Of a stretch of DNA of 64,000 nt, positions 537 to 32,858 are shown one piece after another. The translations under genes and the position numbers were made by a program. Origin of the DNA: Schmidtea polychroa (lineage: Eukaryota); assembly GCA_044892525.1 (NCBI GenBank), contig CM097885.1, positions 11,410,001 to 11,474,000 on the forward strand, given 5' to 3'. How positions within the stretch are numbered: the first letter of the stretch is position 1; every line of letters starts with the position of its first letter. The notes beneath the pieces were generated by a model. That model was given only the letters and a program-made list of their open reading frames with translations. It did no database searches and was not told the DNA's origin.

Positions 537-635
537 TATTAAATCATTTATGAAAATTAGTCTTTATATACAAATTGAGCACGAGTTCATTAAATCATCG
601 AATATAAACAAATACACATTTATAAAATCTTTGAA

Positions 636-2262: not shown

Positions 2263-2339
<77 letters not shown>

Positions 2340-3843: not shown

Positions 3844-6079
3844 GCCTGGAATGTAAACGTTAATACCCGTTTAACTCGCGTCAATTATTAATGGTCGTCA
3901 TAATAAAATACATCGAATTAACTCACATATCAATGACTAAGTTTATTACGATTGTTATAACTACTTTTATCAAAGAAAAAAAATAAGTTTTGTTTATAGG
4001 TTTTCCCAATTTAATTTTTAACTACTTAAAATTAAATAACTTTAATGAAAGAAAATTTAAAGTTGGTGTATAGGTTTTACCAATTTAATTTTTAACTACT
4101 TAAAATTAAATAACTTTTATCCAAATTTAATCATTTACAATTATTATCGTCACCCTGACTTAAGGCCCTTTGTTTTATCACAGTAATCGTTGTTTAATTA
4201 GCGAAAATCATGGCCGTTTTATGAGAATTTAAATGAATTGTTCCCCCGGATCTTTTAAAGGTGATGCAAGTCATTACAGCAGGGTTGTAGAAACAGGCAA
4301 CTGGTAATTCTTTGCATAATTTTTAGTTTTTCTTTTAAAATTTTCCAAATACAGGCATCAAGCTAGAGAATCAGAACCTAAAGACTTTGATGTTAATATT
4401 GCCGAACAGAGATCACTTCCCTCATCAACATATAAATACTTAGGAGGATTGCCTGATGTAAATTTATTATTATTTTTAAATATTCAACTATGAATTTTAG
4501 AAAACATCATTAAGTACTTATCCAGAATTTTGTTAGCAAAAGAAAATTAATCATTAGGAACTTGACAACGGAATGCCGAGGTTTTCTGCTGAAGCTATTG
4601 ATAGTCCTCTTTTTGATGCCAATTATAATGATGATGGATTTCCAAGACATCGCCTTGGATTTGATAGACAACAAATGGAAACAACCTATTGAGTTGATTA
4701 TGTTTATCCTTATCCTTTTCAACATGTCGAAATTAAAATAATATTTTGTCCTTGTCATTCAAGAAAATTTATCGTTAGACCAAAGGTCCAGATTTAACTA
4801 AATCGAATAAAAGGTGTTTGTCTCAATTTTCGGATCCAGGTGAATTTAGCCGTCCAGGAAATAACACATGTGGGATGAATCATGAATGTATGCCAATTCC
4901 CATCTGCAGCGTCAAGGATGTCTTACCGATAATCTATACGGGCCTTTTGTTCAAGAGTAAAACAAAATTTGTCTTGTTATAACTATTCCATAAAATGGAC
5001 GTACAGTCGTATTAAATTTTTGAGTAATAATCTATAAAATGACGAGTAATGGGTGTTTTGATTTAAACATTAATGTTAGGGTAGCCAATTTCAATCATGA
5101 TTTATTTATCGTACTTTTACTTAGGTATTTCATTGACAAGAATGCTGAATTAATTTACACTCTGTCAGTTTGATTTGTACGAATAAGAAATAATAGCATG
5201 TCATTTTGTACCTCGATATCATTGTTGTGTAACGGTATTGTAATTGGGTAAATCATAATGTTATTTGAGCTCTTGGCAGCTATTGGGGAGTAACGTTGGT
5301 AATGTGACATGAGCGGGTGGCTGTTAGTTAACGACTATCGTTAGGGGGATCTGTTCTATTTAACTCCTTTTATTGCCTCTTTCTCATTGCTATCCAAGCA
5401 TATTGTTATATGAAAACCCTAATTTCTAATTCAAATAACTAAATATATAAATTATTTATAAAATTCCATTATATTTTCTACCTTATATTTTAAACTAGAT
5501 TCCATAATTTATTAAAGTTACACTTCAGGTATTTATAACTTACACATTTAATCAAAGTATATTTTATAATAAATTATATATTTAAGTGAAAGGGCATAAT
5601 TCTACTTTATAATCTAGGTTTTTATAAATGATCCATTGAGGTATTATGGAATTATAATTTATAACTCCGACATTTATAAGTTATATTCTTTATATAAAAT
5701 TTTAGTTTCTGGTTTAGATATGTATGTATTTAAGTGGATTATCAAATTCTAGCTCATAATTCAGAACTATTATACATTTACACATTATGTTCTTGGAGAT
5801 GCATCTTGTACTTTAACGTTTATGGATTGTGAATAAGGTTGTATTTCATCATCACGCAATAATACATTGCATTTTTAAGGCTAATACAAAGGTATATATT
5901 ATAATTCAATGTTCATAGCTTACGCGTTAGGTATAATATAACGGTATATTTACCCTTTAGGATTATTATATCTTTATATGTTATATATTCAATAAGACCT
6001 ACAGTTCAGCTTTATTATGAAATACTTACAAGTTACGTTTTCGAGAACAATATAAAGTTAGATTTCATCATTTAATATT

Positions 6080-6560
6080 TATAAATTATATTTTTAAGTG
6101 CGATATCAAATTACTTTTTATACTTTAGGAGTATCACATAGTTATACATTATATTTTTAAGTTCGATATAGAATTATTTTCATACTTTAGGAGTATTACA
6201 TATTTATACATTATATTTTTAAGTTCGATATAAGATTATTTTCTATTCTGTAGGAGTATTACATATTTATACATTACAATATCAAATTATTTTATAATTT
6301 TTAGCGATAGTACATATTTATGAATTATATTTTTAGAAACAATATGAAGTAAAATTTTATAAATTAGGATTTTTCACATTCATCAATTATACGATATAAA
6401 CTTATATTGATAATTTAGAGGTATTACATATTTATCAAATATAATTCTAAGTACAGTAGTAAGTTATAGTTTACCATTTAGGAATTCTAAGTATTTAGCG
6501 ATTCTAACATATATTCTATAGTTTAGGAATATCATATATTTATAGACTGATGTTTAAGTG
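6080..6560. repeat. Degenerate minisatellite, unit about 60 bp
   Basis: Recurring ttatatttttaagttcgatat...tttaggagtattacatatttatacat units. Confidence 0.6.
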
Positions 6561-8595
6561 TAATAGGAGAGTATATAGTTCATTTTACGATTCACGCTTG
6601 TCGAACTTCTTTGTGAGCATTATTACGGTTAATTTCGAGAAAGATATTTACACTGATACGAAAAATTATTTCTCAATGAGGTTCGATAAACGTGTAAGTG
6701 GAGAGGTCTTAACCGACTACATTAGCTGAATTGTAATTGCTGTGTTCAATTTGGGTCTGAGATCTACTCGATTAGAATCCTAGTGTAATTTAGTGTATAG
6801 AATTTTTAGTGGTGATTTTAATTGTGTAATGCATTCATAGTCGGGAAGAATGCTTGCTTACACGGCCCCACTGTGACCGCTACGACAAGCCCTACTGTTG
6901 TGTTGAGTCGAAACATCACTGTCGACCGATAAATAAAGTATATGGAGCCATAGCGGAGGGGTTTTATCGACACAACTCCATGGTAGGACCATGAAGTGGC
7001 CGACCTCCGATGACCAAACAAAAAAAAATATATAAGGTATATTGCGTGTCTGCATGTGCTATAGATTTTACAAATTGATCGAATGTAGGACTGATCAGAG
7101 ACGCATATGTATCAATACGCCGCCGATCCTTCTTACATGAGATAAAAATGATAAGCATGGTTTGATCTAAGCATAATTAATATTAACAATAACGATCAAA
7201 GTTAAGTTAAAATAAAAAAAAAATAATATCATTATACATCAAAATTCAAATAACAAATACTCACTATCTTCAAGTTTTCGCAAAAAAAAGAATTTGGCAT
7301 ACAAAGTGATTCTTGTGACTGAAACGTGTCAGTATATATACCTATTTTGTACACGTGTATGTATTGATGCATTAAAACAAACTCGAATTCTTTTTATTCC
7401 AGAATTTTCTATTTCATGATTTTTATATTTTTTGTGGAAATTTTAGTGCTATAATTTTTGTTTTTATTTTTAAATTTTTATTTTTTAATTATTTTTTCAA
7501 TAATTTACGTCCATGATGGATTTGGAACGGTTCCAGAACATTCTATTTTACTTTTAATTTAATTTTTATTTTAACTGATGTTTTTATGAATTTCTTTTTG
7601 AGATTTTTTATTTTTAATACTAATTTATTTATTTTCCTTAACTTTTGTTGTTCTAGATGACTTTTGTGATGGTCATCGCCATTTTATAGAATGTTCTGGG
7701 TTTTTCTGGAATGTTTTACTATTTTTATCGTCTTTTAAGTTATTCGAGTTTGCTTTTGGTAATTCTATGTTTGTTTGGTTATTTTTGAGTTAGATTTTTG
7801 CATCACTTCTTGCTTCTGTATAATTTTATTTAATTTCTTTGTTTATGTTTTTGTTGCTTTCTCCTTTAGTTAATATTGTTTATTTGGTGTAGGTTTTAAT
7901 ATTTAACTATACTTTTTGCTTTTTACATGTTGTGTACCTGCACGTTTCAGTCACAATTAGTAGTTTGGGTCTAGAAATCAGTTCTAGCCCAACATTATTA
8001 TTATTATTATTATTATTTTAGGTAAAGAATTCTACAATAGCAAAGTTAAGCAAATCCTCGATAAACTGAAAATAAATCACTACTCGGTACATTCTCAATA
8101 CAAAGCTGCCCATGTTGAAAGATTTAATCGAACATTGAGAGATCGATTAAAGAAATTGTTCGTGCATCAAGGTAATAAAAAATGGGTAAATGCTTTACCG
8201 AAAATAATAACAAGTTATAATCATTCATAACATCGAGGACTGAATGGATTGAGACCGGTTGATATTACATCAAAAACATCATTGACTTCTAAGAAATCTG
8301 TAAAAATTACAAAACCTAAATATAAAGTCGGTGATCATGTTAGAATTAGTAAAATTAGTGCATCACCATTTATTAAAAATTTTGATACAAATTGGAGTGA
8401 TGAAGTCTTTGTAATTTCAAAAATAAATACTAAACAGAATCCTGTAATGTATGTCATCAAAGACAATGATAATAATATTGTACAGGGGAAATTTTATGAG
8501 CAGGAATTACAAGTCATTCCTCCCCCAAAAGTATTTAGAATTCAAAAAATATTGAAATCTAAAAAGGTCGGTAAGGATAAACAATACTATGTCAA

Positions 8596-9663
8596 ATGGC
8601 ATGGTTATCAAAACCCGTCATGGATATCAGCAAAAGACATAGTAAAGTGAATTTTTATACTATTTTGCCGAGCAATAGTTGTCCATTAATTCATCCAGAA
8701 AATCAAGCAAGCAAATTCATCATCGAACTCCAAAACCCTACCTATTTGGATAATGACTGGGAAGTTGCTCTGTTGGATTTTACATTTGTATACAATTTAT
8801 TCCCAATCTATAGCAAATCTGTTATTGAATATAATAAGAAAGTAGCAGTAACGGAATATATTAGTGTTCTTATTGATAAAGATAATTATAACTTGACGAG
8901 TTCATCGAAATCAAGGAAACCTATAATTTATGATGATGGTCAATATTTATACATGAATTGCTTGAATAAGCCATTCGAAATTATATTTTCTACAGTGGCT
9001 GATGCTAAACGTCTTGGATTTACTGATTTACGTAATGTATTTAATGATACAGTCAAAATAAATCTCTCTACACTTCCGAAAACTAATAATTTAGTGGAAT
9101 TCAAATTTAAGCTGTCATACATTGAAATAACAGAGCATGCATATACTTTTAAAGATAATTTATATATTACAGACCTCGAACAATTACAAACTTATTTAGG
9201 TGACAATTGTAGCGATATTTTAACAGTTTTTGAGCTTCAAAAAGATAAAGTATTTAGATTTAGTATAAATTCTAATCTTAGTCAAGTTAAATTTGACTCA
9301 AATTTGACAAAAACATTAGGATTGACTAAACCAGTATGTACACAAAATGAACAAATTTGTGAAGGAACAAACAAACCGAAAATCCTTAAACATCATCAGC
9401 AAATGTTCATTTACAGTAATATCGTGGAACCAGTTATTGTTGGCGATTCTAGTGTTCCTTTAATGAAATCTATATGGATTGAAAAACATGATCAAGATGA
9501 AGTTGTACAAATCAATGTAGAAAATCCCATGTATCTACCTGTTTCAACATCTTGTATAAACAATATAGAAATAAATATAAGAGATGATTCTGGTCAATTA
9601 ATCGAATTTCCAAAAGGCTCAAAAACTCATTTGACATTACATTTTCGTAAAATAAATGGCTAA
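8596..9663 (+). CDS. Polinton minor capsid (penton) protein; true start may be near 8647
   Basis: N-terminal FYTILPSNS..PEN..F...L......WEVAL and C-terminal FIYSNIVEP..VGD...PL..IEINIRDDSG..LHF motifs; located after the integrase. Confidence 0.88.
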   Translation: MAWLSKPVMDISKRHSKVNFYTILPSNSCPLIHPENQASKFIIELQNPTYLDNDWEVALLDFTFVYNLFPIYSKSVIEYNKKVAVTEYISVLIDKDNYNLTSSSKSRKPIIYDDGQYLYMNCLNKPFEIIFSTVADAKRLGFTDLRNVFNDTVKINLSTLPKTNNLVEFKFKLSYIEITEHAYTFKDNLYITDLEQLQTYLGDNCSDILTVFELQKDKVFRFSINSNLSQVKFDSNLTKTLGLTKPVCTQNEQICEGTNKPKILKHHQQMFIYSNIVEPVIVGDSSVPLMKSIWIEKHDQDEVVQINVENPMYLPVSTSCINNIEINIRDDSGQLIEFPKGSKTHLTLHFRKING

Positions 9664-10027
9664 TTCTGATATTATTAGTATATATAGTGGTAGCCAATCT
9701 GGTGGTGATTTACCATATTTTATTGGTAAACAGTACGGATCAGGATGGTTGAGAACAATAGGTAGATTTGCATTGCCTATTCTTAAACGTATCGGTAGTT
9801 TTGGTATGAAAACTGCAAAAGACGTTATTATGAATGAACAGAAAATATTACCATCTCTAAAAACAAATGCTTTAGCAGAATTAGGGAAAGTTTTACCCGG
9901 GGTTGCAGGTATGTTTCAAAAACCAGCTCCAGCTCCAGCTCCAGCTCATGCTCCAAAACGTAAAAGACATGGAATATCACGTATAAACAAACGAATGAAA
10001 GGACATGGAACTATATTTGCAAAATGA
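9656..10027 (+). CDS. PW-like virion protein (QxGxG motif, amphipathic helix, basic tail)
   Basis: QYGSGWLRTIGRFALPILKRIG; lies between minor and major capsid genes with overlapping start/stop codons. Confidence 0.7.
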   Translation: MANSDIISIYSGSQSGGDLPYFIGKQYGSGWLRTIGRFALPILKRIGSFGMKTAKDVIMNEQKILPSLKTNALAELGKVLPGVAGMFQKPAPAPAPAHAPKRKRHGISRINKRMKGHGTIFAK

Positions 10028-11244
10028 TTTGTGGTAAATCCGAATTATGTATATTTGATAGACCGTCGCCCCAGGCTGTAATAGAATTTGGGGCATTTGA
10101 GGAAGTTTTTCCTATGAATTCAATTACAGATAGTAGAAATGATATCGAGTTTTATATTAATGGTTCACAAACCGAATATTTAGATTTGAACGATACTTTA
10201 TTGACTGTTCAGATCAAGGTTGTAGATAAAGATAGAAAAGTTTTGGATGCCAATGCAGATGTAATACCGAACAATTTCCTGTTTCATACTCTTTTTAAAG
10301 ATGCAGTGTTGGGATTTAATAATATCAAGATTGAGGGTGGAAATAATACATTCATTCACAAGGCATTAATAGAAACTATTTTAAATTACAATTCCGATAC
10401 TAAAAATACATGTCTTACTCCTATGGGTTATGGCAGTGATGATGAAAGAAAAAAGTGGGTAAAAGGCTCAAAGGTTTTCACCATGTGCTCATCATTACAA
10501 CTTGATTTTATGGATCAACCGAAATATTTACTACCGGGGGTTAATGTACATATTAGATTGAAAAGGTCTGATTCTGCATTATCTCTTACTAGTGCAACTG
10601 GTGCACCAATATGTCAATTAGTTGATGCAAAATTATTGGTGAGAAGAGTACGACTAGACCCCTCAGTATTAGCAGGTCATCAATTGGGTCTTAATTCAAA
10701 ACATGCAATTTATCCATTAAAAACAAAGGAAATTGTACAATTTGCTATTGCTAAAGGTGCTTCATTTTTCTATAAAGAACAAATATTTGGTGACAGAAGA
10801 ATGCCTAATTTTATTCTGATAACATTTCAAAGTGAAGCACAATATAATGGATCATATACTGCGTCCAGCTCAATTTTCAAAAACTTTGGTGTTACATCAT
10901 TGACTTTGTCGAAAAATACTGATTATAGAGAAACATATATTCAAGATTTCGAGAATGACAATTACTGTGCGACATATATGCAGAGTATTGTTAGAAATCT
11001 GGGTTATTTAGATAAAAATTTGAATTGCGGAATAACTCTAGAAGATTTTAAAAGCAAATACCCATTTTTTACATTTGTTTTAGCCCCTGATTTTGATTTA
11101 AATCAAAGTCAATTACCACAAAACGGGAATTTACGACTGGATATAAAGTTTGCAAGAGCCATTACAGAACCAGTACATGTTATAATATATGGAGTATTTG
11201 AAAATGAAGTTCAAATTACTGCAAATAGAACCGTGCTAGTATAA
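10024..11244 (+). CDS. Polinton major capsid protein (double jelly-roll), intact, 406 aa
   Basis: KSELCIF..Q..I, IEFYING..EYLDLNDTLL, QPKYLLPGVNVHIRL, GNLRLDIKF motifs. Confidence 0.92.
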   Translation: MICGKSELCIFDRPSPQAVIEFGAFEEVFPMNSITDSRNDIEFYINGSQTEYLDLNDTLLTVQIKVVDKDRKVLDANADVIPNNFLFHTLFKDAVLGFNNIKIEGGNNTFIHKALIETILNYNSDTKNTCLTPMGYGSDDERKKWVKGSKVFTMCSSLQLDFMDQPKYLLPGVNVHIRLKRSDSALSLTSATGAPICQLVDAKLLVRRVRLDPSVLAGHQLGLNSKHAIYPLKTKEIVQFAIAKGASFFYKEQIFGDRRMPNFILITFQSEAQYNGSYTASSSIFKNFGVTSLTLSKNTDYRETYIQDFENDNYCATYMQSIVRNLGYLDKNLNCGITLEDFKSKYPFFTFVLAPDFDLNQSQLPQNGNLRLDIKFARAITEPVHVIIYGVFENEVQITANRTVLV

Positions 11245-11270: not shown

Positions 11271-11656
11271 ATGGAGTAAGTTGTTTTTTTATACTCTGGA
11301 TTTATTTAAATAGTTCTGTTCAGGTCAATAAAATCGGAAAACAGATATTGGGAAATGAATTTGTTGGAGTTTTTCCTCTTGATAAAATTCCTTATTTGAG
11401 CAATAATCAAGCAATAATCGTCAATACTCAATCGTCTCATCTTGGTGGAGAACATTGGATAGCTATATATGTGAAACCTGGTAATATATTCGTGTTCGAT
11501 CCTATGGGTTTCTATTACCCAGCTTTGTTGATATCAAAACTACAAACAATGGGAAAACCTATTGTGTATAATAAAACTATGTTTCAAAATCCTTTGACCC
11601 AAACATGCGGTCAACATTGTTTAGCTTGGTTATTGTACAAAAAATTTGATGTTTAA
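11271..11656 (+). CDS. Adenain-type cysteine protease; exons 11271-11275 and 11314-11656
   Basis: GEHW, FDPMG, Q..TCGQHC catalytic motifs. ATGGA|gtaag..atag|TTCT splices to MDSVQV; the same intron is in the second copy. Confidence 0.9.
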
Positions 11657-11753
11657 AGAAAAAAATGTTTAATAAATTTGATGTTTAATAAATGTATCCT
11701 TTCCTTTGTTGTTGTGTTATTATTATTATTATTAATAATATTATTATTATTAA

Positions 11754-11838
<85 letters not shown>

Positions 11839-11964
11839 ATTATTAATATTATTATTATTGTGAAAAATATTATTATTATTGTGAAAAATATTATTATTGT
11901 GAAAAATATTATTATTTTTAATTATTTTTATTATTATTCTAATAAATATTATTATTTGTAACAT

Positions 11965-12215
11965 AAAGACTGCCTTTGCCTGAGGCATGCACAGTGCAAG
12001 TTAACAAAGGCATGACTAACAAAGGCAGTCACATGTAATTCTGACTGATTTACATTACATACATGCATGCGTGTGATTGGTTGAGAGAGTAAAATATTCA
12101 GTGTATATGTGTGTGTGTCTATATTCTCATTGGCTGGGACAGGAAAATATTCATTCTCTTTATAAACATTGACAAATCTAAAATTTGTCACAATTATTTT
12201 AAAATTTTGAAAATC
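11965..12215 (+). promoter_or_regulatory. pPolB promoter region, shared with 15420-15677
   Basis: Near-identical in both Mavericks; two inverted CCAAT boxes (ATTGG), then TATAAA followed by a GACAAAT..ATTTGTC palindrome upstream of the ATG. Confidence 0.6.
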
Positions 12216-13059
12216 TATTTCACAATCAATTCGAAAAAAACCAAAATGGAAAACAACAATAATCGAGTATTGAGAGGTCTTTTGACGAATGGTAATTTAT
12301 TTTTTTTTTCTATTTTATTATATTTTATTCTATTTTATTTAGAACCATTCGACTGGTATGAGGTTACCGAAAACGATTCGCTTTTAAATGTAGAAAATAT
12401 CTTTGGTAAATTTATAATTTTAATTTTTATTAAATTAATTTTTGCATTTAGAACCTAGTATTATTACTATTAGCGACGACGATGAAGAAATTAATGCCGA
12501 ATCGATTTTAAATACGGAAAATATCATCGGTAAATTTATAATTTTAATTTTTATTAAATTAATTTTTGCATTTAGAACCTAGTATTATTACTATTAGCGA
12601 AGACGAAGAAATTAATGCCGATGAGGATTTGATATTTATTGATGCCCCAGTTAAGGATGTTGGGCAAAACAAGGTTTTCGAAGAAAAAAGTAAATTTTAT
12701 TATTTTTCACTTTATTAAATTAATTTTTCATTTTAGAAAATGTTTCAAATGTTTTCAAATGTTCAAATTCAAATGTTTTCAATGTTGACATTGATGCCGA
12801 AGATTATGAAATTGCTGAAGATGATGATTCCGATAATAGTTCTAATATGGACGAAATGAATGACATCGCTTCTAATGAGGAGGACTCTGATTCCGATATG
12901 GAATCGAAATGTAAGATTCATTTATTTTTATATTTTTTATATTAAAATTTATTAAAATTTCGTAACAACTTTTTAAATATTTTCATAAAAAAAAAAACAT
13001 TTTGATAAAAAATTTTTTAAATATTTGGATAAAAATTATAATGAAACTGTTGAAGAAAA

Positions 13060-13540
13060 TGATTTTATGATGAAAATATGCCAAAAAATTGATGAAAAAA
13101 TGATTTATGAAGAAAATGATTATGATGAAAATATGAAGAAAATTTATGATGAAAATGAATTATTATGATGAAAATGATTTATTATGATTTATGACCAAAA
13201 TTATGATGAAAATGCTTTATGACCAGAATTATGATGAAAATGCTTTATGACCAAAATTATGATGAAAATGCTTTATGATTTATGACCAAAATTATGATGA
13301 AAATGCTTTATGATTTATGACCAAAATTATGATGAAAATGCTTTATGATTTATGACCAAAATTATGCTGAAAATGATTTATTATGATTTATGACCAAGAT
13401 TATGATGAAAATGCTTTATGATTTATGACCAAAATTATGATGAAATAATGACGAAAATTTATGATGAAAATACTTTATGACTAAAATTATGATGAAACTT
13501 ATGACGAAAATTATGAAGAAAATGATTTATGAAGTAAATA
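13060..13540. repeat. Minisatellite in the pPolB intron
   Basis: Tandem ttatgaccaaaattatgatgaaaatgctttatga units. Confidence 0.85.
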
Positions 13541-13638
13541 CTATGTTTTTGAAATTATTATGAAAATATTTAAAAAGTTATTACAAAATTATAGTTATAA
13601 AATCCTTGTAGTTTGCAATGTGCATCTACAATAGTTAA

Positions 13639-13720
<82 letters not shown>

Positions 13721-13795
13721 TAATAATGTAGTCTACAGTAAGCATGTAGCTACATAGTAGTCTACAGTAAGCATGTAGCTACTTCTCTTTTATAA

Positions 13796-13847
<52 letters not shown>

Positions 13848-13933
13848 TAATCTGACCCTTCTACTATAGTCTACAGTAAGCATGTAGCTATATAGTAGTC
13901 TGCAGTGAACATGCAGCTACTTCTCTTTTATAA

Positions 13934-13970
<37 letters not shown>

Positions 13971-14335
13971 GTAGGGTAATGTGTGGACCCGGGAACAAAG
14001 ACATATGACGTCATCGATGACGTCACAAAGACATATGAGTCATACCCCCGGGGGAGGGGTTTTTTTTTTTAAATTTTTTTTTAAAATTTTTTTTTTTAAA
14101 TTTTTTTTAAAAAATTTTTTTTTAAAATTTATATTACGTTGCGGTATTTTAAAATATATATTACGTTGCGGTATTTTAAAATTTATATTACGTTGCGGTA
14201 TTTTAAAATTTATTATATTTTAATTATTAAATATATTACGTTGCGGTATTTTAAAAACTTATTGATAAAAGTTTAATAAAATAAAATTATTATTACACAC
14301 ACACAATATAGTCTACCCGACAAAATATTCTGTTC

Positions 14336-14816
14336 ATCATTCTATAAAGAACAAATATTTGGTGACAGAAGAATGCCTAATTTTATTCTGGTAACATTTC
14401 AAAGTGAAACACAATATAATGGATCTTATACTGCTTCCAGCTCAATTTTCAAAAATTTTGGTGTTACTTCATTGACTTTGTCGAAAAGTACTGATTATAG
14501 AGAAACATATACTCAAGATTTCGAAAGCGATAATTACTGTGCGACATATATGCAGAGTATTGTTAGAAATCTGGGTTACTTAGATAAAAACTTGAATTGT
14601 GGAATAACTCTAGAAGAATTTAAAAGCAAATACCCATTTTTTACATTTGTTTTAGCCCCTGATTTTGATTTAAATCAGATTCAACTACCACAAAACGGGA
14701 ATTTACGACTGGATATTAAGTTTGCAAAAGCTATTACTGAACCGGTACATGTTATAATATATGGAGTATTTGAAAATGAAGTTCAAATTACTGCAAATAG
14801 AACCGTGCTAGTATAA
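14336..14816 (+). pseudogene. 3' fragment of major capsid gene fused to the left TIR
   Basis: Near-identical to 10763-11244; begins immediately after the TIR. Confidence 0.92.
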
Positions 14817-14843
14817 ATGTATACAGAAACACAAAAAGTTGTC

Positions 14844-15228
14844 ATGGAGTAAGTTTTTTGATACTGTTTAATTTTATTAAAGTAGTTCTGTTCAGGTTAA
14901 TCGAATTGGAAAACAAATATTAGGAAATGAATTTGTAGGAGTTTTTCCTCTTGATAAAATTCCTTATTTGAGCAATAATCAAGCAATAATCGTCAATACT
15001 CAATCGTCTCATCTTGGTGGAGAACATTGGATAGCTATATATGTGAAACCTGGTAATATATTCGTGTTCGATCCTATGGGTTTCTATTATCCTGCTTTGT
15101 TGATATCAAAACTTCAAACAATTGGGAAACCTATTGTATATAATAAAACTATGTTTCAAAATCCATTGACTCAAACATGTGGTCAACACTGTTTGGCATG
15201 GTTGTTGTATAAAAAATTTGATGGTTAA
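14844..15228 (+). CDS. Adenain protease, second copy; exons 14844-14848 and 14886-15228
   Basis: Near-identical protein to copy 1; 37-nt GT-AG intron at the same position. Confidence 0.88.
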
Positions 15229-15274
15229 TAAATGTATGATTTTTATTTGTTGACTATTTTAATTATTTGTTAAA

Positions 15275-15341
<67 letters not shown>

Positions 15342-15696
15342 ATTATTAATATTATTATTTTGAAAAAATATTATTATTTTTAATTAATTTTATTATTCAA
15401 ATAAATATTATTAATTCTACATAAAGACTACCTATGCCTGAAGCATGCACAGTGCAAGTTAACAAAGGCATGACTAACAAAGGCAGTCACATGTAATTTC
15501 TGAGTGATTTACATTACATGCATGCATGCGTGTGATTGGTTGAGAGATGAAAATTTCAAGTTACTATGCGTATGTGTCTAATTCTGATTGGCTGGGACAT
15601 GAAATTTTTCATTCTCTTTATAAACATTGACAAATCTAAAATTTGTCACAATTATTTTAAAATTTTAAAAATCTATTAATAATAATATTTAACAAC

Positions 15697-16004
15697 ATGA
15701 ACAACAATATTCAAAGAGTTGACGGAAAGATCGTTGGAGGAATTAATGGTAAATTTATTATTTTATTATTTTATTATTTTTAATATGATTATTAGGTACT
15801 AATCAACAAATGAATATCGACGGACAAGCTGTAGACATGAATAGAATAAATGGTAATAGTTTACTATTATAATCATTATTATTTTATTATGCTTTTAGAT
15901 GGAATAAATACTTCTGCTGGTTCTGATGCTGGAAAATTTCTTTCGAAAGGACGAAAATGTAAGTATTTATTTATTGTTATAAGTTTTTAAGTTTTTTAAA
16001 CAAT

Positions 16005-16058
<54 letters not shown>

Positions 16059-16609
16059 TAAAAGAAGAAACTTATGAAAAGAAGATTTTTTCATGAAAAG
16101 AAGATATTTTAAAAGAAGATTTATTTATGAAAAGAAGATTTATTCATGAAAAGAAGATTTACCTATTTATTTATTTATGAAAAGAAGATTTACTTATTTA
16201 TTTATGATTATTTATTTATGAAAATGAATTAAATTATATATATTTTATAATATTTTTTATAAGATACTATTTAAAAGATAATTTTGAATAATATCTTACG
16301 AAAAATATCTTAAACTTTAAAAATGATTATTATCTTAATATTTTTTAAACATTTTATGATAAAAATATTTTCATAGGTTTGAAATACCAAAACTTTTGTA
16401 ATAGTCAATATCATAATGACTGCGATGATATAATGGAAAGATATTATAGTCATAAATATAACGGTGTCACCTACATCCTATGCCCTAAATGTGAGGTTAT
16501 TGAAGTTATAACGTATAAGGAATTTTATAATAAGCATAGACTCCATCTCCAACAATTTAAACCTTCTAAGAAGTCTCTTTTCTATAGCTTATATGAATCG
16601 TTTGTTAAC

Positions 16610-16658
<49 letters not shown>

Positions 16659-19600
16659 TCAACAACAACAATAATAATAATATCAACAACAATAATAATA
16701 ATAATAATATCAACAATAATAATAATAATAATATCACCAACAATAATACTAACAGCACCAATAATAATAATAATGATATAAACGAAATAAATAATCTAAA
16801 AGATCAAGTAAATAAATTAAATGAACAAATAAATAATCTAATTAATATGAATAAAAGAAAAAATAATGAAAAAATAAATTCAATACCAAGTAAAAAATCT
16901 AAAGTTATTGATGTAATCACAATAAGTGATGATGATGATGAAATAATCAACATAAGTGATGATGAAATTGATAATAATAATAATAATAATAATAGTAGTA
17001 GTAGTAATATTTATTATAATAATTGTATTAATAATACTAATCAAATAGGTTATGGTGTCGTAGATGTCACCAGTGATTTAAATAATAATCATATTATATT
17101 AAAAATGGACGTTTCGTCTTTAGATTTAAAAACGGTCTCTGTACCAGAAATTTTAATAAATAAATTAAATTTATATGTAAATAAATTAAAATCATGTAAA
17201 ATTCAATTTTGTCTAAAGGTGGAATTTATAAAAGATGATGAGTTACAATCTTTTGTAATCTCGAATTCCGCCCGAGTTTGGAGCGATACATTCATTGACG
17301 AAGGTATTGCTCGTTTAAATGAAAAAATAATTAAAATTAATGAGAAAGGTAGTAATTGGACTATCAATAAAATAGAATACATAAGCTTTGTTCTTACTAA
17401 ATTTGCTGAAATAAGTCGATTAAGTGGTAGAAGTTTTATTGAAACCCCAAAATCTTTAAGAAACTTAAGCTGTCTCATTAATGTAGTTAATAATGACCAC
17501 TTCTGCTTTTTGTATAGTTTCTTGTCAATTATTAAATATGACTGTATAAATAGGCAATATAGAAATCGCCCTAATTCCTACAATCTTTCTGAAATTAAAT
17601 TTGATCCTAATGATATGCCGATGAAACTATCAAATATAAGTAAATTTGAACAACAAAATCCGGGTTATAGTATTAATGTTCTTACTTATAACGAAAAGGC
17701 TTTGATTGACATTTCCGATGAAGATGCAGTTATGAAACATCCCTTTATTGATATAATATATAGGAGTAAGATAGTAGGAGCCATACCTATCAATTTATTA
17801 TTAATCGAAAAGAATGATAATTATCATTATCTTGGAAATTCCAAGTTGGAATCACAGACCTAAATAGATTTCTTAATTGTAGGAATAGTTCAATCACTCC
17901 TGTTAGGATTTGTAGTCAGTGGTGCCCTAGATGTTTAAACGGTTTTAGGAATGATGACGCTTTTAATAGACATAAGGGTCTTTGCGATAAAAATCAGCTT
18001 GGTACTACCTTGTACACATTGCCTAAAAATAAATATTTAGAATTTACTGATTGGAGTAAAACAGTTACTCCTCTCTTTGTTATTTACGCTGACTTTGAGG
18101 CTATCTTACTAAAGACACTCGCTACTTTCAACGTCATCTGCCTATTTCTGCCGTTATGCTTTTTATTAATAATTTCACAGGCGTAAAAATTTATAAGTCG
18201 TTCACCGGTTTAGATTGTGTCGATCAATTTCTTACTGAAATTGAAATGATAGGGAAATATATTGTAACTCCTTATTATTATAAAAATTATCAAAAGAAAA
18301 TGATAATTACAGATGAGCAACAATTAATGTTTGAAAACAGCACATCATGTTATTTGTGCAATAAGCCTTTAGTTAGTCCAGTTAGGGACCATGATCATTT
18401 TAGCGGTCTATATCTTGGTGCCGCTTGTACAACTTGTAATCTGTCGAGGCAAATTAGACATACCCTTCATGTAGTATTTCATAATTTAAAGGGTTATGAT
18501 CTGCATCATATCTTGAAATTTGGCCTTTCAAAATATCATTCATGGAATATTAGTTGTATTCCTTTAACCAGCGAGAAATTCCTTAGTCTTTTTGCTAGGA
18601 TTGACTCATTAACTGTTAAATTTATAGACTCTTATCAATTTGTCAGCGAGTCTTTAAATAATGCTGTCAAAACTTTATCATCTTTACCCTTGACCGAATC
18701 AGAATTTCAGGGTACAATAATAACTGCAAAGGGAATTTTTCCTTATGATGTCGCAACTTCATTAGAGGTTTTACATAACACTCATCAGTTACCACCTATT
18801 TGGAAAGATGTGACTCCTGCTAAATATGAGACAGCTCAGCGAATTTGGGTTGAAACTTCATGTACTTCACTTTTCGATTACATGATGGTTTATTTAAAAC
18901 TTGATGTTTTCCTTTTAGCCGATTTTTTCCAGCAATTTAGAGCTAAGTCCATTGCTCATAACCGACTAGAGCCATTAAATTTCTTAGGGATTCCAGGTAT
19001 GTCTTGGAATTCAGCCTTATTAACTTTAAACTCTCCAATTGAGCTCCTCACCGATATGGAGATGTATAACTTTTTCGAGGGCGGTATCCGTGGCGGACTA
19101 ACTTTTTGTAAATAAACATTATGTAAAAACAGACCCGGATACCGCTTTGCTTTACATAAATATAAATAATTTATACGGTTGGGCTTTAAGTCAACCATTA
19201 CCTTGCAGTGACTTTGAATGGGTTACTGATGATAATTTATTAAATAATATAATTGTTGAATGCACAACGGTAGATTTAGATCTGCTTGATTATGGTTATA
19301 CCATAGAAGTGGATTTAGAAATACCGACGTCAATTCACGACAAACTGGACGATCTTCCCGTTGCCGCTGAAAAGATGTGTGTACCGGGTTCGAAAATAGA
19401 GAAGCTGTTGCTTACACATAGCCCCAAGAGGAACTACGTTCTTCATTGGAGGCTTCTACAAATATTTATTAAATTAGGTGTTAAAATATCAAAAACACAT
19501 AGAGCAATTAAATTTAAACAAGATAAAATTTTCAAAAATTATATTAACACAAATACGGCGTTACGAGCAGCGTCGACAAATAAACTCGATAAAAATTTTT

Positions 19601-20499
19601 ATAAATTATTAAACAACAGTCTTTACGGCAAGACTGTTGAAAATCTTAAAAAACGTATTAATTTACGTCTGTGTAATTCTTCACAGAGATTATTAACATT
19701 CTGTTCGAAACCAACTTTTCGTAAATCCACGAAAATCGATGATGACTTGATTTCGGTTTTATTGAGGAAGGACATAGTGTGTTTGAATAGACCTAGTTAC
19801 ATTGGTCAAACCGTACTTGATTTATCCAAACTCAGGATGTACCAGCTGCAGTATGAAGAGTTGCAAAAATATCGCGACGAATTCAACTGCGAAATTAATA
19901 TCGTTGCTGGAGACACAGATTCCTTCTTCTTGGAAATTAAACATTGTAGTCTTGACATTCTTTTACCTGCGATGATTAGAGATCAATTATTAGATACTTC
20001 GAATTATGACCCAAATCATCCTTTATATAGTAGGAACCTTGATTCTGTCATTGGCAAATTCAAAGATGAGAATAAAGGGTTATTATATAAAGATTGGGTG
20101 TTCTTGAGACCTAAATGTTACAGTTTGATGGGTGATGAGGAAAGTATGAAGGCTAAGGGGATAAGTATGAAAGATACTGGACTAACACATCAGTCGTATC
20201 TAGATTGTTATTTAAATGATAAAATATACACAGTCCCTCAGTTTAGAATAACGTCAAAAAATCACCAACTTTTTAGTATTAAAAATAATAAAAGAGCATT
20301 GACATGTAGAGATGATAAGCGAAATTGGGTGGATAAAAATCAAAGTTTGGCATATGGCCATTATAGGGGCGGTGACACCGATATATTTATAGATTCAACG
20401 GAAGCTATCTCAGCAGATGATACAGATGATTTCCATGATACAGATGATTTCCATGATCCAGCAGATGATAATTATTTTGGACATGATTATTTTCGATGA
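15697..20499 (+). pseudogene. pPolB of Maverick-2; exons 15697-15748, 15796-15852, 15899-15958, 16377-20499; frameshifted
   Basis: Phase-1 micro-exons splice in frame to CLKYQNFC; frameshifts near 17840, 18115 and 19105; motif A reads YININNLYG where copy 1 has YIDINNLYG. Confidence 0.9.
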
Positions 20500-20697
20500 T
20501 GTGTTTAAATTATTTAATAAATGTATTGATTTTATTGTCTTGATTATTTTTAACAGTAACTTTGTGAACAATTTTTATACATTGTAATAATAATAATAAT
20601 ATGTTAAAGTTTTGTTAGTTACCTTTATGACCTTTACCCAGTGTGTTAATAAATTTTAAAATTGAATTATTTTCATTTAAATATACTATTAAAAACA

Positions 20698-21461
20698 TTA
20701 ATTTTTATTCATATATCTACAGAAAATATACATTATAACAACTCCAGTTGTAAGTTTTATATAGTTTTTCATTTTTCTTTTGATTTCATCAGTTTCTTTA
20801 AAATTGCAGGCCAGTTTATTTAATACACCCCATCCGCCATTGGCTTCTATCCATGGGGTAAACTTGGAGTTGATTATCTAGAAATGAATATTATTAAAAT
20901 ATAGATTATAAAAGAAATCCTACTTCTAAAGACCAATGATAATAATGTTCTGAATCATGTTGACCTTTTGCAATGATTATCTTCATGTAGGTGAATCCTA
21001 CAATTATCCTTGTCCATTTCATGTCTTCATCGAAAAGACACTGAAATATTCTATTGAAGTAATACTTCTTGGTTTCCAGGGATTCCGTCTCCATCATCTG
21101 CTGATAATCGATATGTTCACCTTCAATGATTTGTTCGGTTCGATTGATCAGGAAATTGAGGCTGTCGACTATATTCGCGGTGACAATTCCGTTTAGAACA
21201 TTTTCCATAAAATTTGGTTGCGACATTTCTAAAATAATTTAAAATATAATGTTTTTATTTATACTAATACCATATGATTTTGATTGGTTGATAGACTATA
21301 AATGTAAAAGAAAGGTTTTGATTTGATACACCATAAAAACTATATTGCTAATTATTATAACGAGTGTGTGCTAACACAATACCTTAATTTTATAATATTC
21401 GACTATGTTTTTTGTTAACCATGATTTGTGATAGAAATTATATAATAATAATAATATCAAC

Positions 21462-21492
<31 letters not shown>

Positions 21493-21568
21493 TATGTTTT
21501 ATTACATTGTTTATTAATACTCTTGCGAGTTGTTGAGCGTGACCAGTACCCTTCTGAGCAGTACCCAT
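20698..21568 (-). CDS. Bcl-2-family protein, about 185 aa; exons 21568-21521, 21295-21271, 21228-20924, 20877-20698
   Basis: BH1-like LFDEDMKWTRIIVGFTY, BH2 WIEANGGW, C-terminal hydrophobic tail LTTGVVIMYIFC flanked by basic residues. All four exons join in frame; the first two exons are less certain. Confidence 0.85.
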
Positions 21569-22191
21569 AGGGGGACAGAATATTTTGTCGGATAGACTCG
21601 GAGTATATAGATTAATAATATATCAATGAGAACACTAACTTGTTGCGTGTGTGGACACTAATAATATTTTTATACATTGTGTGTGTGTGTGACCATAGGG
21701 GAACAGAATATTTTGTCGGGTAGACTATATTGTGTGTGTGTAATAATAATTTTATTTTATTAAACTTTTATCAATAAGTTTTTAAAATACCGCAACGTAA
21801 TATATTTAATAATTAAAATATAATAAATTTTAAAATACCGCAACGTAATATAAATTTTAAAATACCGCAACGTAATATATATTTTAAAATACCGCAACGT
21901 AATATAAATTTAAAAAAAAAATTTTAAAAAAATTAAAAAAAAAATAAATTAAAAAAAAAATTTAAAAAAAAATAAAAAAAAATACCCCCCCTCCCCGGGG
22001 GGTAGGGGGTATGACTCATATGTCTTTGTGACGTCATCGATGACGTCATATGTCTTTGTTCCCGGGTCCACACATTACCCTACTACTACTACTAATAATA
22101 ATAATAATAATATAATCTGACCCTTCTACTATAGTCTACAGTAAGCATGTAGCTATATAGTAGTCTGCAGTGAGCATGCAGCTACTTCTCT

Positions 22192-22269
<78 letters not shown>

Positions 22270-25200
22270 TAATCTGACCCTTCAACTATAGTCTACAGTA
22301 AGCATGTAGCTATATAGTAGTCTGCAGTGAACATGCAGCTACTTCTCTTTTATAAAATAATAATAATAATAATAATAATATAATCTGACCCTTCTACTAT
22401 AGTCTACAGTAAGCATGTAGCTATATAGTAGTCTGCAGTGAGCATGCAGCTACTTCTCTTTAATAATAATCTTACTCGTCTAATATTTAACATATAATAA
22501 TCTGACCCATATACTAAAATCTCTCTGATATTCTCTATTAACCTATTTTCTATAAGGATTTATCATCATTTGTTATATAGTTCATTTGAATTAAATAACA
22601 AATGATGATAAATCCTTATAGATGTAACAATTAATAACAATTAGAAAAAAAGAAAAATCTTTAATTTTATTATTTAACAGGTAGACTATACCCAAATTAT
22701 TGTCAAGCTGCAAATGGACATAGCGATAAATGTCATCGCACAATGAAAAAGTACTACAAAAAGACGTTTAATTCCGTCAACTTTTTTATATGCCCCAAAT
22801 GCATGACTAGCGAAAAAATAAAATATAGGGAATTTTTTAATAAACATCATAGTCACTTAGGGCAATTTTCGATATCAAAAAATGTTTTATTTAAAAAAAT
22901 AAATAAAAAAAAATTACAAAAATATTTATCAAAAAATTTACCAAAAAATACTATTAAAAAAGATATAAAAAAAGATATTAAAAAAGATTTAAAAAATATT
23001 AAAAAAAATATTATAAAAGAAAAAACAGATTCTATTAAAAAAGATGCTATTATTATTAAAAAAGATACTATAAATATTATTAAAAAAGATATTATAAATA
23101 TTAAAAAAGATTCTATTAAAAGACCTGCTGGTTTAATTAAAAATTGCATTCCTAATAAATTATCGCGACCTGAAGTGGTAGTCATCAGCAAAGATGAATG
23201 TGTAGCTTCAACATCGTTTACACAACAAGCACCCATTACACAACAATCACCCATTACACAACAAGAAGTGATAGTCATCAATGATGAATGTGTAGCTTCA
23301 ACGTCTTTCAACATATGTCAAATAGGCGGCTCTTTGTTTGAACCAGTTGTTGAATCCGATTTGAATGGATCACGTAAAACTTTAAAATTTAATATAAGAA
23401 ATGAAAACCTGTTTAAAATAGCCCTAACATCAAAAATTGAAGAAAGATTAATAGAGGAAATAGAAAAGATGGGCAATGTAAAAATCCAATTTACAATTTT
23501 AATTAAATTTGAAAAAGATGGGGAGATCCGGGATAATTATTTTTCAAACAATGCGCAAGTTTTTTCAGCAAATTTTATAAACGAGGGGGTGAGCAAATTA
23601 AATGAAAAGATTGAGCAATTCACCTATTTAGGAAGCGGGTGGCGAGTAGTGAATATTTTAGAGATAGATTTTATTTTAACGAAATACGCACCCGTTAGTA
23701 GATTATCCGGACATAGCTATATAAAAACCCCATCGGCTTTAAAATTAAAACATGCAATAATTAACGTTAAAAACAACGACCATAAGTGTTTCTTATATAG
23801 CATTCTTGCACTTTTAAAAAGAGAAGAAATAGATCGTAATCACCAAAGAGCCGCCAAATATATAGAATTTTTACCTCTATTAAATTATGACGAAGACACC
23901 GATTGCCCGATGAGGCTATGTAACATTCCTAAATTTGAAAGGAAAAATCGTGATTTAAATTTAAGCATAAACGTTCTTTCGTATAATCCAGCCAGTACTG
24001 ATAGTGATATTTCTCAGGATTATGTAGCTCACCACCCTCATCTTAATATCATACATCGCTCCAAGGTTATAGATGGTAGGCCAATTTATTTATTACTTTT
24101 GAGTAATAAAGATAAATATCATTATACGGCCGTGACAGACTTGGACAAATTAATGAATTGCCATTTAAATGAAAATGTTAACGTTCAAATAAGGTGTAAC
24201 TGGTGCCCACATTGTTTAAATGGCTTTAGATATAAGAATGCTTTCGATCAGCATGTTGCTCTATGCTGTAAAAATCAGACTGGCACAACCTTGTATACAC
24301 TTCCTAAAAATAAGGATTTATTATTCACAGATTACGCAAAAACAGTTACACCTCCCTTCGTAATTTATGCCGATTTTGAATCGGTTTTACCAGAACATGA
24401 AACATATCATCAAATACATTTACCCATATCAGCAGGTCTTTTATTAATTAATAATTATACAAACACAAAATTTTATTATTATTTTTTTGGACCTAATTGT
24501 ATTTTGGATTTTTTGAGGAAAGTGGAGGAAATTGCTGTCACAATTGTCCTGCCATATTATGATCTTGAAGGTCGTAAAGGTATGTCTACTTTGTCTTTTG
24601 CTCAGGAGCGTGCCTTTCGATCTTCCACTATTTGTTATTTGTGTAAAAAATCTATTATTAATCCTGTGAGAGATCATTGTCATTTTACAGGTAGATATGT
24701 CGGAGCGGCATGTAGGAAATGCAATGTCTCTCGCAGGATTAATAAATTGTTACCTGTTGTCTTTCATAATTTACAAGGCTATGACCTCCACCATATTTTA
24801 AAACATGGTCTCAGTGATTTTCCCCTTTGGGAACTTAATATTATACCTACCTCTACAGAAAAATTTATATCTTTAATTGCATATATTAACAAATTGCCTG
24901 TTCGTTTTATTGACAGCATGCAATTTGTTAATTGTTCTTTAGCAAAAGCTGTGAAAACCTTAACTACTTTTCCGTTAACTTCGTCTGTCTTTCAAGGGTC
25001 GATGATTCACTCTAAAGGTATCTTTCCATATAATTTCGCTACTTCTTTGGATGTTCTTGAATCGACTTTAGAATTACCTCCTATTTGGTCTGATGTTACG
25101 GAAGATCAGTACCCTGAGGCTCAACTAATTTGGAGTCAGCATAACTGTAATAATTTGTTAGATTATATGTTAATCTACCTAAAATTGGACGTATACCTCC

Positions 25201-26967
25201 TCGCAGATTATTTTCAGCAATTCCGCGGTAAGGCAATTGCTTACAATGGTCTGGATCCTCTTAATTTCTACGGGATTCCCGGTATGTCATGGGCCTCAGC
25301 GCTTATGACATTAACGGAACCAATAGAACTTCTGCAGGACATGGAAATGTATAATTTCTATGAGGGAGGTATCCGGGGTGGGTTAACATTTGTTAACAAA
25401 CATTACACGGCTACTTCAGATGATACAGAATTATTGTACATTGATATAAATAATCTGTATGGTTGGGCTCTTAGCCAAAATCTTCCGTATGGTGATTTTT
25501 CTTGGGTGAATAATAACTTGAATGATGTTTTACTTGAATGTATGAACACGGATATTGATAACCTTCCATATGGGTATACTATGGAGGTCGATATCGATAT
25601 TCCGGAATGTGTGCATGACTTTTTGAATGATTTTCCGCTTGCGCCAGAAAAGTTGTGCCCGCCTAATTCAAAAGTTGAGAAGCTTATGCTTACGCATTGG
25701 CCAAAGAGGAACTATGTTCTTCATTGGAGGCTTCTCAAATTGTATATAGAATTAGGTGCGGTTGTTGTAAATATTCATAGGTGTATAAAGTTTAAACAAG
25801 GACCTATCTTTAAATCCTACATAGACACCAACACCACTTTACGATCTCAGTCTACTAGCGAGATATATAGGGACTTGTTTAAATTGTATAATAACTCTCT
25901 TTACGGTAAATCGGTTGAAAATTTGAAAAAAAGAATGAATTTGAGGTTGTGTAATTCATCCGAAAAGATGATAGTATACTCCTCAAAGCCGACTTTCAGA
26001 AAGTCCATAAGAATCGATAACGATCTGATTGCGGCACATTTGGAAAAAGATGTGATTTGTTTAGACAGACCTAGCTACATTGGTTAAACAGTACTAGATC
26101 TGTCTAAACTGCGGATGTACCAGCTCCAATATATTGATTTGGAGAAGTACAGACGCCAATATAAATGTATAATTAATATTATTGCCGGTGATACCGACAG
26201 TTTCTTTTTGGAAATAAAAAATTTAAAATTAACAACTCTATTACCTCAGATGATCTCTGATAATTTATTGGATACGTCAAATTACGATCCAACACACCCC
26301 TTATATAATAGGAACCTTGACTCTGTCATCGGGAAGTTTAAAGATGAGAGCAAGAGATTAGGTTATTCTGAATGGGTTTTCTTACGCCCTAAATGTTATA
26401 GTCTTTTAGGTAGTAAGGAAACAGTAAAAGCGAAAGGGGTTAAATTACCAGGGACATCAATAAATCACGAATCATATCTAAATTGCTTTCATTCAAATCA
26501 GGTGATTTCTGTACCGCAGACTAGAATAGGTACTAGAAATCACCAACTTTTTACTTTTAAAAATTCGAAAATTGCCCTAAGTAATAATGATGATAAGCGC
26601 GCGTGGCTAGGAAAAAACATAAGTTACGCATTTGGGCACTATTTAGGAGTTGACGATTTAAGCGAATATGATGAGGAATTCAGTGCAGCTCCAAGTCCCA
26701 GTTTTGACGACAGCGAATGGGACGAAGATCAAATTTAAATAGAAAAAACTTTATATTTTTGATTTATAAAAACTTGTATAGTGATTTCATGATTTATAAA
26801 AAATTGTATAGAAACATTTATTTAAAAACTTGTACAAAAACCTGTATATTGTATAAAACTTGTATTTATATATACATATTCAATAAAATTTTTAATCAGA
26901 TTTTTTTTTTAATTTTTTAAGTATTTGGTGTTTTATTATAATTTTTTATATTTAATGGTGATTTTTA

Positions 26968-27157
26968 TATAGTCTGCAGTGAGCATGCAGCTATAACAGT
27001 TTTTTTTATATATAGTCTGCAGTGAGCATGCAGCTATATCAGTTTTTTTTTATATATAGTCTGCAGTGAGCATGCAGCTATAACAGTTTTTTTATATATA
27101 GTCTGCAGTGAGCATGCAGCTATATAAGTATAGTCTGCAGTGAGCATGCAGCTATAT
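26968..27157. repeat. Tandem palindromic repeat TAGTCTGCAGTGAGCATGCAGCTA, five copies
   Basis: Read directly; same unit at 13729-13920 and 22130-22452. Confidence 0.9.
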
Positions 27158-27164
27158 CAATCAC

Positions 27165-27303
<139 letters not shown>

Positions 27304-27547: not shown

Positions 27548-28380
27548 TATGACCTTGATGAGTCATCGCGATGACTCATATGACCTTGGGAATGACCTTG
27601 GATGAGTCATGTGACCTTGAAAATGACCTTGGTGAGTCATAGGATGACGCAGATGACCTTGAAAATGACCTTGAAAATTTTGATGAGTCATCGGATGAGT
27701 CATATGACCTTGAGAATGGCCTTGATGAGTCATATTATGAGTCATATGCCCTTGAAAAAAATTTTCAAGGTCATATGAGTCATACTATGAGTCATATGCC
27801 CTTGAAAATGCCCTTGATGAGTCATACTATGAGTCATATGACCTTGAAAATGACCTTGATAAGTCATATTATGAGTCATATGGCCTTGAAAAATTTTTCA
27901 ATGGCATATGAGTCATGCTATAAGTCATATGACCTTGAAAATGACCTTGATGAGTCATATTATGAGTCATATGGCCTTGAAAAATTTTTTCAAGGGCATA
28001 TGAATCATACTATGAGTCACATGACCTTGAAAATGACCTTGCTGAGCCATACTATGATCTTTGTTTCAATGACCTTGATTAGTCATATTATGAGTCATAT
28101 GACCTTGAAAAAAATTTTCATACTATGAGTCATATGACCTTGAAAATGACCTTGATGAGTCATGGTCTTTGTTTAGATGACCTTGAGGAAATTTTTTTTA
28201 CCTTGATGAGTCATAGTATGAGTCATATGACCTTGAAAATGACCTTGATGTGTCATATGATGAGTCATGGTCTTTGTTTAAATGACCTTGAAAAATTTGA
28301 TGAGTCATAATATGAGTCATTGTCTTTGTTTCAATAACCTTGATGAGTCATATGTCTTTGTTTAAATTTGACCTTGAAAA
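27548..28380. repeat. Subterminal minisatellite built from TGAGTCA and TGACCTTG motifs
   Basis: More than twenty copies of each motif; homologous array at 32190-32735. Confidence 0.9.
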
Positions 28381-28492
28381 AAAATGTACTTTTAGACTTA
28401 GAATATTTTTGAAAATCTTACCGACGGGGGGAGGGGGGGGGGGTACTGTGCTAGCTGTGCCCTGTGCCAGCGGTGCCCAATCCATCTACTCT

Positions 28493-32858
<4,366 letters not shown>

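Follow-up and report, generated by a model that had tools for sequence, protein, structure and literature searches.

Probable spliceosomal introns in core genes of two nested Polinton/Maverick elements from Schmidtea polychroa

Animal Polintons/Mavericks (polintoviruses, adintoviruses) carry a polymerase (pPolB), a chromodomain integrase, an A32-like ATPase, an adenain-like protease and terminal inverted repeats with AG...CT ends, and their described core genes are intronless. The intact vertebrate Mavericks in one survey were those with intronless open reading frames (ORFs; PMC8097293); in a nematode Maverick the core genes are intronless and introns occur only in cargo genes (10.1101/2022.07.12.499685); and a large survey used prokaryotic ORF finders on the ground that endogenous viruses are without introns (PMC10120064). 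Introners have been reported from dinoflagellate Polinton-like proviruses (PMC11957031) and group I introns from cryptophyte Polinton-like elements (PMC12220804). The present analysis concerns a window of 64,000 nucleotides from the planarian Schmidtea polychroa (assembly GCA_044892525.1, contig CM097885.1, positions 11,410,001 to 11,474,000), which holds two nested elements, Maverick-1 and Maverick-2, whose protease, polymerase and – in Maverick-1 – integrase genes are very probably split by true spliceosomal introns. Coordinates are those of the window; genes lie on the plus strand unless stated.

Maverick-1 is a Polinton/Maverick on the plus strand that fills the first 28 kb of the window (its left end falls outside) with genes in the order TBP-like ORF, A32-like ATPase, integrase, two capsid-like ORFs, protease and pPolB. 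Maverick-2, internally deleted, is nested in an (AAT)n tract within the last pPolB intron of Maverick-1 and holds the 3' portion of the capsid gene, the protease, pPolB and a Bcl-2-like gene; the integrase is missing from it. The features on which family membership of Maverick-1 and Maverick-2 rests – pPolB, a retroviral-like integrase, the ATPase, an adenain-like protease and terminal inverted repeats with AG...CT ends – are all present, the integrase in Maverick-1 and the terminal repeats in Maverick-2. A further described trait, intronless core ORFs (not a defining one), is lacking: protease, integrase and polymerase are all split. Bcl-2 cargo is already known from adintoviruses (PMC8502044), and it is the introns in core genes that set the two elements apart from those of the sources cited. 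The literature searched, which did not extend to the 2006-2007 original descriptions, Repbase or supplements, gave no instance of Polinton core genes with inherited spliceosomal introns.

Probable introns in the core genes of Maverick-1 and Maverick-2

Sharing of an intron position between elements is shown at the DNA level for the protease and suggested at the protein level for the integrase. The cysteine protease of Maverick-1 (11271-11656; PF00770, E 3.9e-06) comprises a 5-nt exon 1, a 38-nt phase-2 intron (11276-11313) and exon 2; that of Maverick-2 (14844-15228), a protein 98% identical to it, has a 37-nt phase-2 intron (14849-14885), and in both genes the intron is placed two bases past the ATG. 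The two copies are 306/327 identical in exon 2 (94%) and 29/38 in the intron (76%), in agreement with an earlier note on this DNA, which had described differing introns between conserved exons. Because the 5-nt exon contains the start codon, and exon 2 has no Met until past the His of the GEHW motif, the whole protease is unobtainable without splicing. A 39-nt GT-AG intron is found at the identical phase-2 site (after ATG+2) in L013, an almost complete relative from a metagenome that has its genes in a different order and whose protease and polymerase are 49% and 46% identical to those of the window. Among the top 30 protease hits, four (P0273, a member of the window family, P0274, P0275 and P0292) have N-termini rich in F/Y/L/I/N, with a Ser directly ahead of the conserved start, which is what an ORF caller reading through a phase-2 acceptor would produce (a reading made at the protein level only), and eight start straight at M-[DNSE]-[TSGN].

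The polymerase genes begin with multi-exon leaders. In Maverick-1 the leader (12246-12910) encodes an acidic low-complexity peptide and consists of five exons (12246-12291; 12343-12405, 63 nt; 12452-12529, 78 nt; 12576-12689, 114 nt; 12737-12910, 174 nt) separated by four introns of 51, 46, 46 and 47 nt; a last intron of 9770 nt (12911-22680), about 1.65 kb once Maverick-2 is subtracted, leads to the long exon (22681-26738). The Maverick-2 leader (15697-15958) has three exons (15697-15748; 15796-15852, 57 nt; 15899-15958, 60 nt) with introns of 47 and 46 nt, followed by one of 418 nt (15959-16376). All leader introns are phase 1, all leader exons are stop-free, and both chains finish on a split Cys codon ahead of the long exon (22681 and 16377). 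The numbers, phase and lengths of these exons, and their joining to the same Cys codon, had been given in the earlier note and are exact in the sequence.

The long exon of Maverick-1 encodes a Cys/His domain (modelled at a predicted local distance difference test score of ~90), a linker, putative TP (terminal protein) and vOTU domains, an exonuclease with an EndoVII insert, and the polymerase. A fold search returned the phi29 polymerase as top match (E 7.5e-11) and named only the polymerase part. Two confidently modelled domains (residues ~222-334 and ~340-490) precede the exonuclease, the second with a conserved Cys and an invariant His, and it is to these that the putative TP and vOTU names apply. 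In this the protein resembles the described TP-vOTU-EXO-PALM architecture of pPolB (10.1101/2024.03.18.585575); it differs in that a Cys/His domain and, split by introns, a leader of low complexity are added further N-terminal, and neither "intron" nor "splic" occurs in the main text of that source. The Maverick-2 polymerase body (16377-20499; PF03175, PF02945) is 33-62% identical to that of Maverick-1 and is broken into four ORF pieces, the breaks being, by reading of the sequence, frameshifts and not GT-AG gaps.

The region upstream of pPolB (11962-12219), with a TATAAAC box at 12161, is identical at 241/259 positions to 15419-15677 of Maverick-2, and in both elements the first ATG past this box is the start of exon 1 (12246 in Maverick-1). 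In the window pPolB genes there is no in-frame Met ahead of the split Cys, and no TATAAAC box near the long exons. Three metagenomic relatives (L002, L004 and L013) start intron-free immediately ahead of the site of the Cys split, with a Met 2-4 residues before the same Cys and 34-48 nt past a TATAAAC box. A fourth, L001, has two leader micro-exons (40 and 24 nt) with phase-1 introns of 45 and 40 nt, and two further phase-1 introns (43 and 44 nt) in the polymerase core, exactly at tblastn frame changes; at the second of these core sites the protein P0028 carries 15 inserted codons that keep the frame and resemble an intron. Several database homologues are called from a Met inside the Cys/His domain, and this, with the read-through starts of the protease, bears out the expectation that ORF callers miss or mis-start these genes.

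These four loci are those, among 15 metagenome loci, that reach the polymerase 5' end; one (L013) has the protease, and the rest are partial or distant. Scans of IMG/VR and of prokaryote genomes found no relative. In a polymerase tree of 61 rows (P0049 omitted for low cover, together with four proteins duplicated by loci) Maverick-1 and Maverick-2 are sisters (97/85), L001 and L013 are sisters in a separate subclade (98/92), and a third group is made up of L002 and L004, which have no leader. The leader has either arisen more than once or been gained and then lost.

The Maverick-1 integrase is divided between exon 1 (1875-2262; rve, E 2.5e-05, under the curated cut-off), with a phase-1 donor at 2263, and exon 2 (8022-8650), which carries the chromodomain (Chromo, E 2.3e-05) and is 61% identical to L013, where the integrase is uninterrupted. 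The phase-1 intron between them (2263-8021; 5759 nt) has GT..AG ends and contains a (TAT)n tract holding an inserted element of ~5.6 kb (2339-7993), the end regions of which match 52526-52749 and 56952-57285. A related copy of the insert stands at 52526-57720, without the (TAT)n tract, and the insert appears to contain its own GT-AG introns of 43-50 nt near 4300-4500. Among 14 short integrase relatives, two (P0260 and P0261) stop just past the intron-site motif, eight read through it and four are uninformative; the relatives searched were of 70-224 residues only, a range that favours truncated calls. In P0259, a 98%-identical integrase, the intron site runs directly into the C-terminal end, which is consistent with an internally deleted family member.

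The Bcl-2-like gene of Maverick-2 (20713-21226, minus strand; PF00452, E 0.0008, under the curated cut-off) has two exons and a 46-nt phase-0 intron (20923-20878). Only once this intron is removed is exon 2 reached, with its W-x5-GGW motif and hydrophobic tail; matches in the PDB, to A1/BAK, are weak (E 0.21 and above). Directly upstream of the start, a 42-nt GT..AG segment (21229-21270, minus strand), with an out-of-frame ATG at the donor, may be an intron of the 5' untranslated region.

The earlier note had described GT-AG introns of 37-51 nt throughout: this is so for nine of the 12 introns, and the other three measure 418, 5759 and 9770 nt. The features expected of U2-type introns are present – GT-AG ends, an AT-rich body, and restoration of the frame of a conserved protein upon removal – and the position of the protease intron is kept in Maverick-1, Maverick-2 and L013 despite sequence divergence. 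Leader exons of pPolB have a G+C content of 0.32-0.35, against 0.06-0.15 in their short introns.

Origin and apparent exchange of the polymerase leader

Exon 3 of the Maverick-1 leader has a local source. Positions 12372-12486 match the sequence 124 nt downstream at 104/115 bases, which marks a tandem duplication of an intron-spanning unit of ~124 nt (12372-12619, the end being placed by the unit length). Introns 2 and 3 do not differ in sequence, and intron 4 resembles them; the duplicated unit comprises 46 intron and 78 exon bases, and exon 3 is a chimera in which the tail of exon 2 is joined to the head of exon 4. Tandem duplication of a unit that spans an intron yields a symmetric exon of the same phase without import: the exon symmetry by which shuffling is recognized is present, and local duplication was found as its source.

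Leader sequences and exon numbers differ among Maverick-1, Maverick-2 and L001, and each leader accompanies its own diverged polymerase body. To call the 5' exon sets of Maverick-1 and Maverick-2 unrelated, as in the earlier note, is an overstatement: one of the 45 pairs tested, that of the two first exons, shows a weak relationship (local nucleotide p=0.006; 35/52 in global alignment). Maverick-1 exon 5 shares 13 nt with exon 2 of L001 (p=0.002, again out of 45 pairs), a match treated as possibly chance.

The two elements agree at 93-98% in capsid, protease and promoter, whereas their polymerases agree at 33-62%, and the boundary of similarity is sharp (12213-12219 in Maverick-1, ~15677 in Maverick-2). 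On these comparisons the unit of exchange between elements is apparently the whole polymerase gene behind a shared promoter. The leaders also differ in charge (43/154 residues acidic in Maverick-1 against 4/54 in Maverick-2), in keeping with a tail under little constraint. Should the vOTU free the terminal protein, as has been proposed (10.1101/2024.03.18.585575), the leader tail would stay on the terminal-protein part.

The architecture can be set beside a second protein-primed system, and the likeness is partial: the window leaders are multi-exon, family-specific and ~57 and ~158 residues long, and the protease is also split. The adenovirus E2B mRNAs for the polymerase and preterminal protein, both of them proteins of protein-primed replication, likewise have their start codon on a short exon placed upstream, and this shared exon contributes just a few residues.

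Probable splicing and its competing explanations

No run recorded as RNA contains the stretch. Four sequencing runs were compared with 11945-13010 only, two of which (X13 and X17) are without contigs, a result that says nothing about expression. In X12, three contigs depart from the reference exactly at 12689, where exon 4 ends, and go on in frame with letters like those of exon 5. Variants of exon 2 seen in loose ends keep the frame over 16 codons, with nine residues unchanged (five via synonymous change) and seven replaced, as judged by eye. Past the ATG, the seven X1 indels (six sites) among those listed all fall in introns (P=0.003 under uniform placement). X1 and X12 loose ends at 12213 mark the edge of the shared promoter block. 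The read data are hints of splicing and of coding constraint, short of proof.

Several observations weigh against inherited, spliced introns. No joint is listed at any predicted intron within 11945-13010; that X12 is RNA is a guess, as it covers promoter and intron sequence too and holds an unspliced 61-nt piece across intron 4; the join at 12689 may be a DNA form, X1 loose ends being known only among those listed; and poly-T runs attract indels anyway, inflating the intron bias of X1. Splice-like motifs are frequent by chance in the window. A GT..AG/AT-rich filter, chosen post hoc after the introns had been seen, recovers four introns in 12246-12915 (shuffle P=0.005) and two in 15697-15965 (P=0.038), and window-wide it shows no enrichment (63 observed against 68+-10 shuffled); a blind AT-island segmentation flagged just two of six introns. 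Intron-bearing and intron-free relatives are interleaved on the polymerase tree, so that a single origin is not shown; eight of the 14 integrase relatives read through the intron site; and an 8-nt repeat at both ends of the integrase intron is a possible insertion footprint, though the lack of a (TAT)n tract in the other copy of the insert favours, without proof, a prior intron. Finally, both copies are broken – Maverick-1 by premature stop codons at 8228-8230 in its integrase and at 26085-26087 in its polymerase, Maverick-2 by the division of its polymerase over four ORF pieces – and neither demonstrates present-day function. Since motifs alone prove little, weight is placed on frame, homology and relatives, and on these grounds the claim of spliceosomal introns in core Polinton genes is very probably correct.

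The earlier note had seen in the leader a shuffled or alternatively spliced module, the phase-1 exons of which would be brought in from elsewhere or left out, so that isoforms of the polymerase/terminal protein differ at the N-terminus. It is true that all internal leader exons are phase 1 and multiples of three, and that the leaders of Maverick-1, Maverick-2 and L001 are unlike in number and sequence. Allowing for the enrichment of G at codon position 1 (0.47), the excess of phase 1 has P=0.006 if 11 introns are counted as independent and P=0.11 on a conservative count (5/7). Tandem duplication (104/115 at lag 124) explains exons 2-4 of Maverick-1, the first exons are related, the leaders follow their own polymerase bodies, and no exon-skipping joint is listed in the reads over 11945-13010: shuffling is not borne out, and this explanation is improbable. 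Alternatively splicing could act as a regulatory gate, such that splicing confined to certain tissues or stages would permit transposition or the maturation of virions. The introns do sit in integrase, maturation protease and polymerase, two of them directly behind a start codon, while the genes for the ATPase and for the capsid-like and TBP-like proteins each consist of one ORF; the protease position is retained across ~50% protein divergence; and X12 has joined and unspliced forms at intron 4. Those mixed forms, however, could represent DNA or pre-mRNA, the leader or the integrase intron is missing from close relatives, and elements that replicate as DNA keep introns even without selection, which leaves the gate rather unlikely.

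It could further be argued that the introns were gained in the host after integration (introner-like, or from microsatellites, in dead copies), or that they are chance GT..AG pairs in AT-rich spacers. The broken state of both copies and the lack of window-wide enrichment agree with this, as do the dinoflagellate proviruses, which like the window elements combine a Polinton-like make-up with spliceosomal introns, and whose introners are mobile, repeated and mostly gained after integration (PMC11957031). The window introns, in contrast, are unrelated in sequence and one position is conserved: dispersed near-identical copies were not seen among 12 short introns compared, only the Maverick-1 tandem trio being alike, and L013, distant and with another gene order, has the identical protease intron site. 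Exon variants that hold frame with synonymous change speak against chance. Post-integration gain or chance is very unlikely.

The explanation we prefer, with a probability of about three in four, is a Polinton lineage with inherited introns, nuclear transcription, host splicing, leader duplication and polymerase exchange. The protease, integrase and polymerase genes would have acquired short AT-rich GT-AG introns, which were inherited with the element from then on and retained because it copies DNA to DNA. Transcription would take place in the nucleus of the host, and its major spliceosome would remove the introns; the polymerase mRNA would start behind the TATAAAC box, splicing would complete the first Cys of the Cys/His domain, and the leader exons would add a poorly constrained tail ahead of it. 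Local tandem duplication of intron-plus-exon units, filtered by frame, would multiply leader exons (shown for exons 2-4 of Maverick-1), and whole polymerase genes, leader included, would be swapped between families behind the shared promoter. Most likely the introns are constitutive and tolerated, and not a shuffling device.

Surrounding sequence and wider meaning

The remaining genes of Maverick-1 are single ORFs. The TBP-domain ORF (99-563, minus strand; PF00352, E 1.5e-15), which needs no intron, stands head-to-head with the A32-like packaging ATPase (636-1262; PF04665, E 3.5e-07; 76% to L013), and a similar ORF is found, by eye, upstream of the L013 ATPase. The PF04665 match and that of the protease to PF00770 exceed the curated cut-offs. 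The putative major capsid protein (10024-11244; 406 residues), a candidate for the double jelly-roll capsid protein of Polintons, is 54% identical to the L013 ORF adjoining the protease; it has no Pfam match and is named from its size and position. The ORF at 8581-9663, a putative minor capsid protein, has two homologues in tandem in L013 (6515-8622), where the polymerase lies on the opposite strand. A TATAAAC box precedes several Polinton genes (603, 1248, 9982, 12161 and 15619) and the polymerases of L001, L002, L004 and L013, with other copies inside ORFs.

Maverick-2 (13970-22093) is bounded by terminal inverted repeats of 418 nt (91%) with AG...CT ends; its flanks are (AAT)n, from which a 6-bp target site duplication is indistinguishable. 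Around it, the last pPolB intron holds, at 13631-13969 and 22094-22470, a tandem unit of ~110-157 nt with (AAT)n, the insertion target, and short repeats related to this unit recur at 26962-27167. Arrays of TGAGTCAT-containing repeats that end in a G-run (27571-28450 and 32212-32810) probably represent the point at which Maverick-1 terminates on the right (~28447) and another such end related to it. The host side (34896-60300) holds a single-exon SNIP1-like FHA gene, a protein kinase, a RING gene, and hAT and DDE_3 transposases; by reading of the sequence, one hAT transposase is nested within another. Matches to the SNIP1-like protein lie at about the same distance in animals generally and in some fungi, and five of six window proteins had no counterpart in an exact-match collection.

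A bolder reading would see here an animal-associated Polinton clade that uses host splicing as a tissue or stage switch for protease, polymerase and integrase, with an exchangeable, duplication-prone leader that diversifies the N-terminus of the terminal-protein precursor; we regard this as doubtful. An intron position common to elements that are ~50% diverged points to long nuclear residence and to dependence on the host spliceosome, as in adenoviruses. Prokaryotic ORF calling on this lineage mis-starts or splits the protease, integrase and polymerase, and spliced copies would score as decayed. Shared intron positions offer markers for tracing Polinton history and host range, and junction reads a simple read-out of when the elements are expressed.

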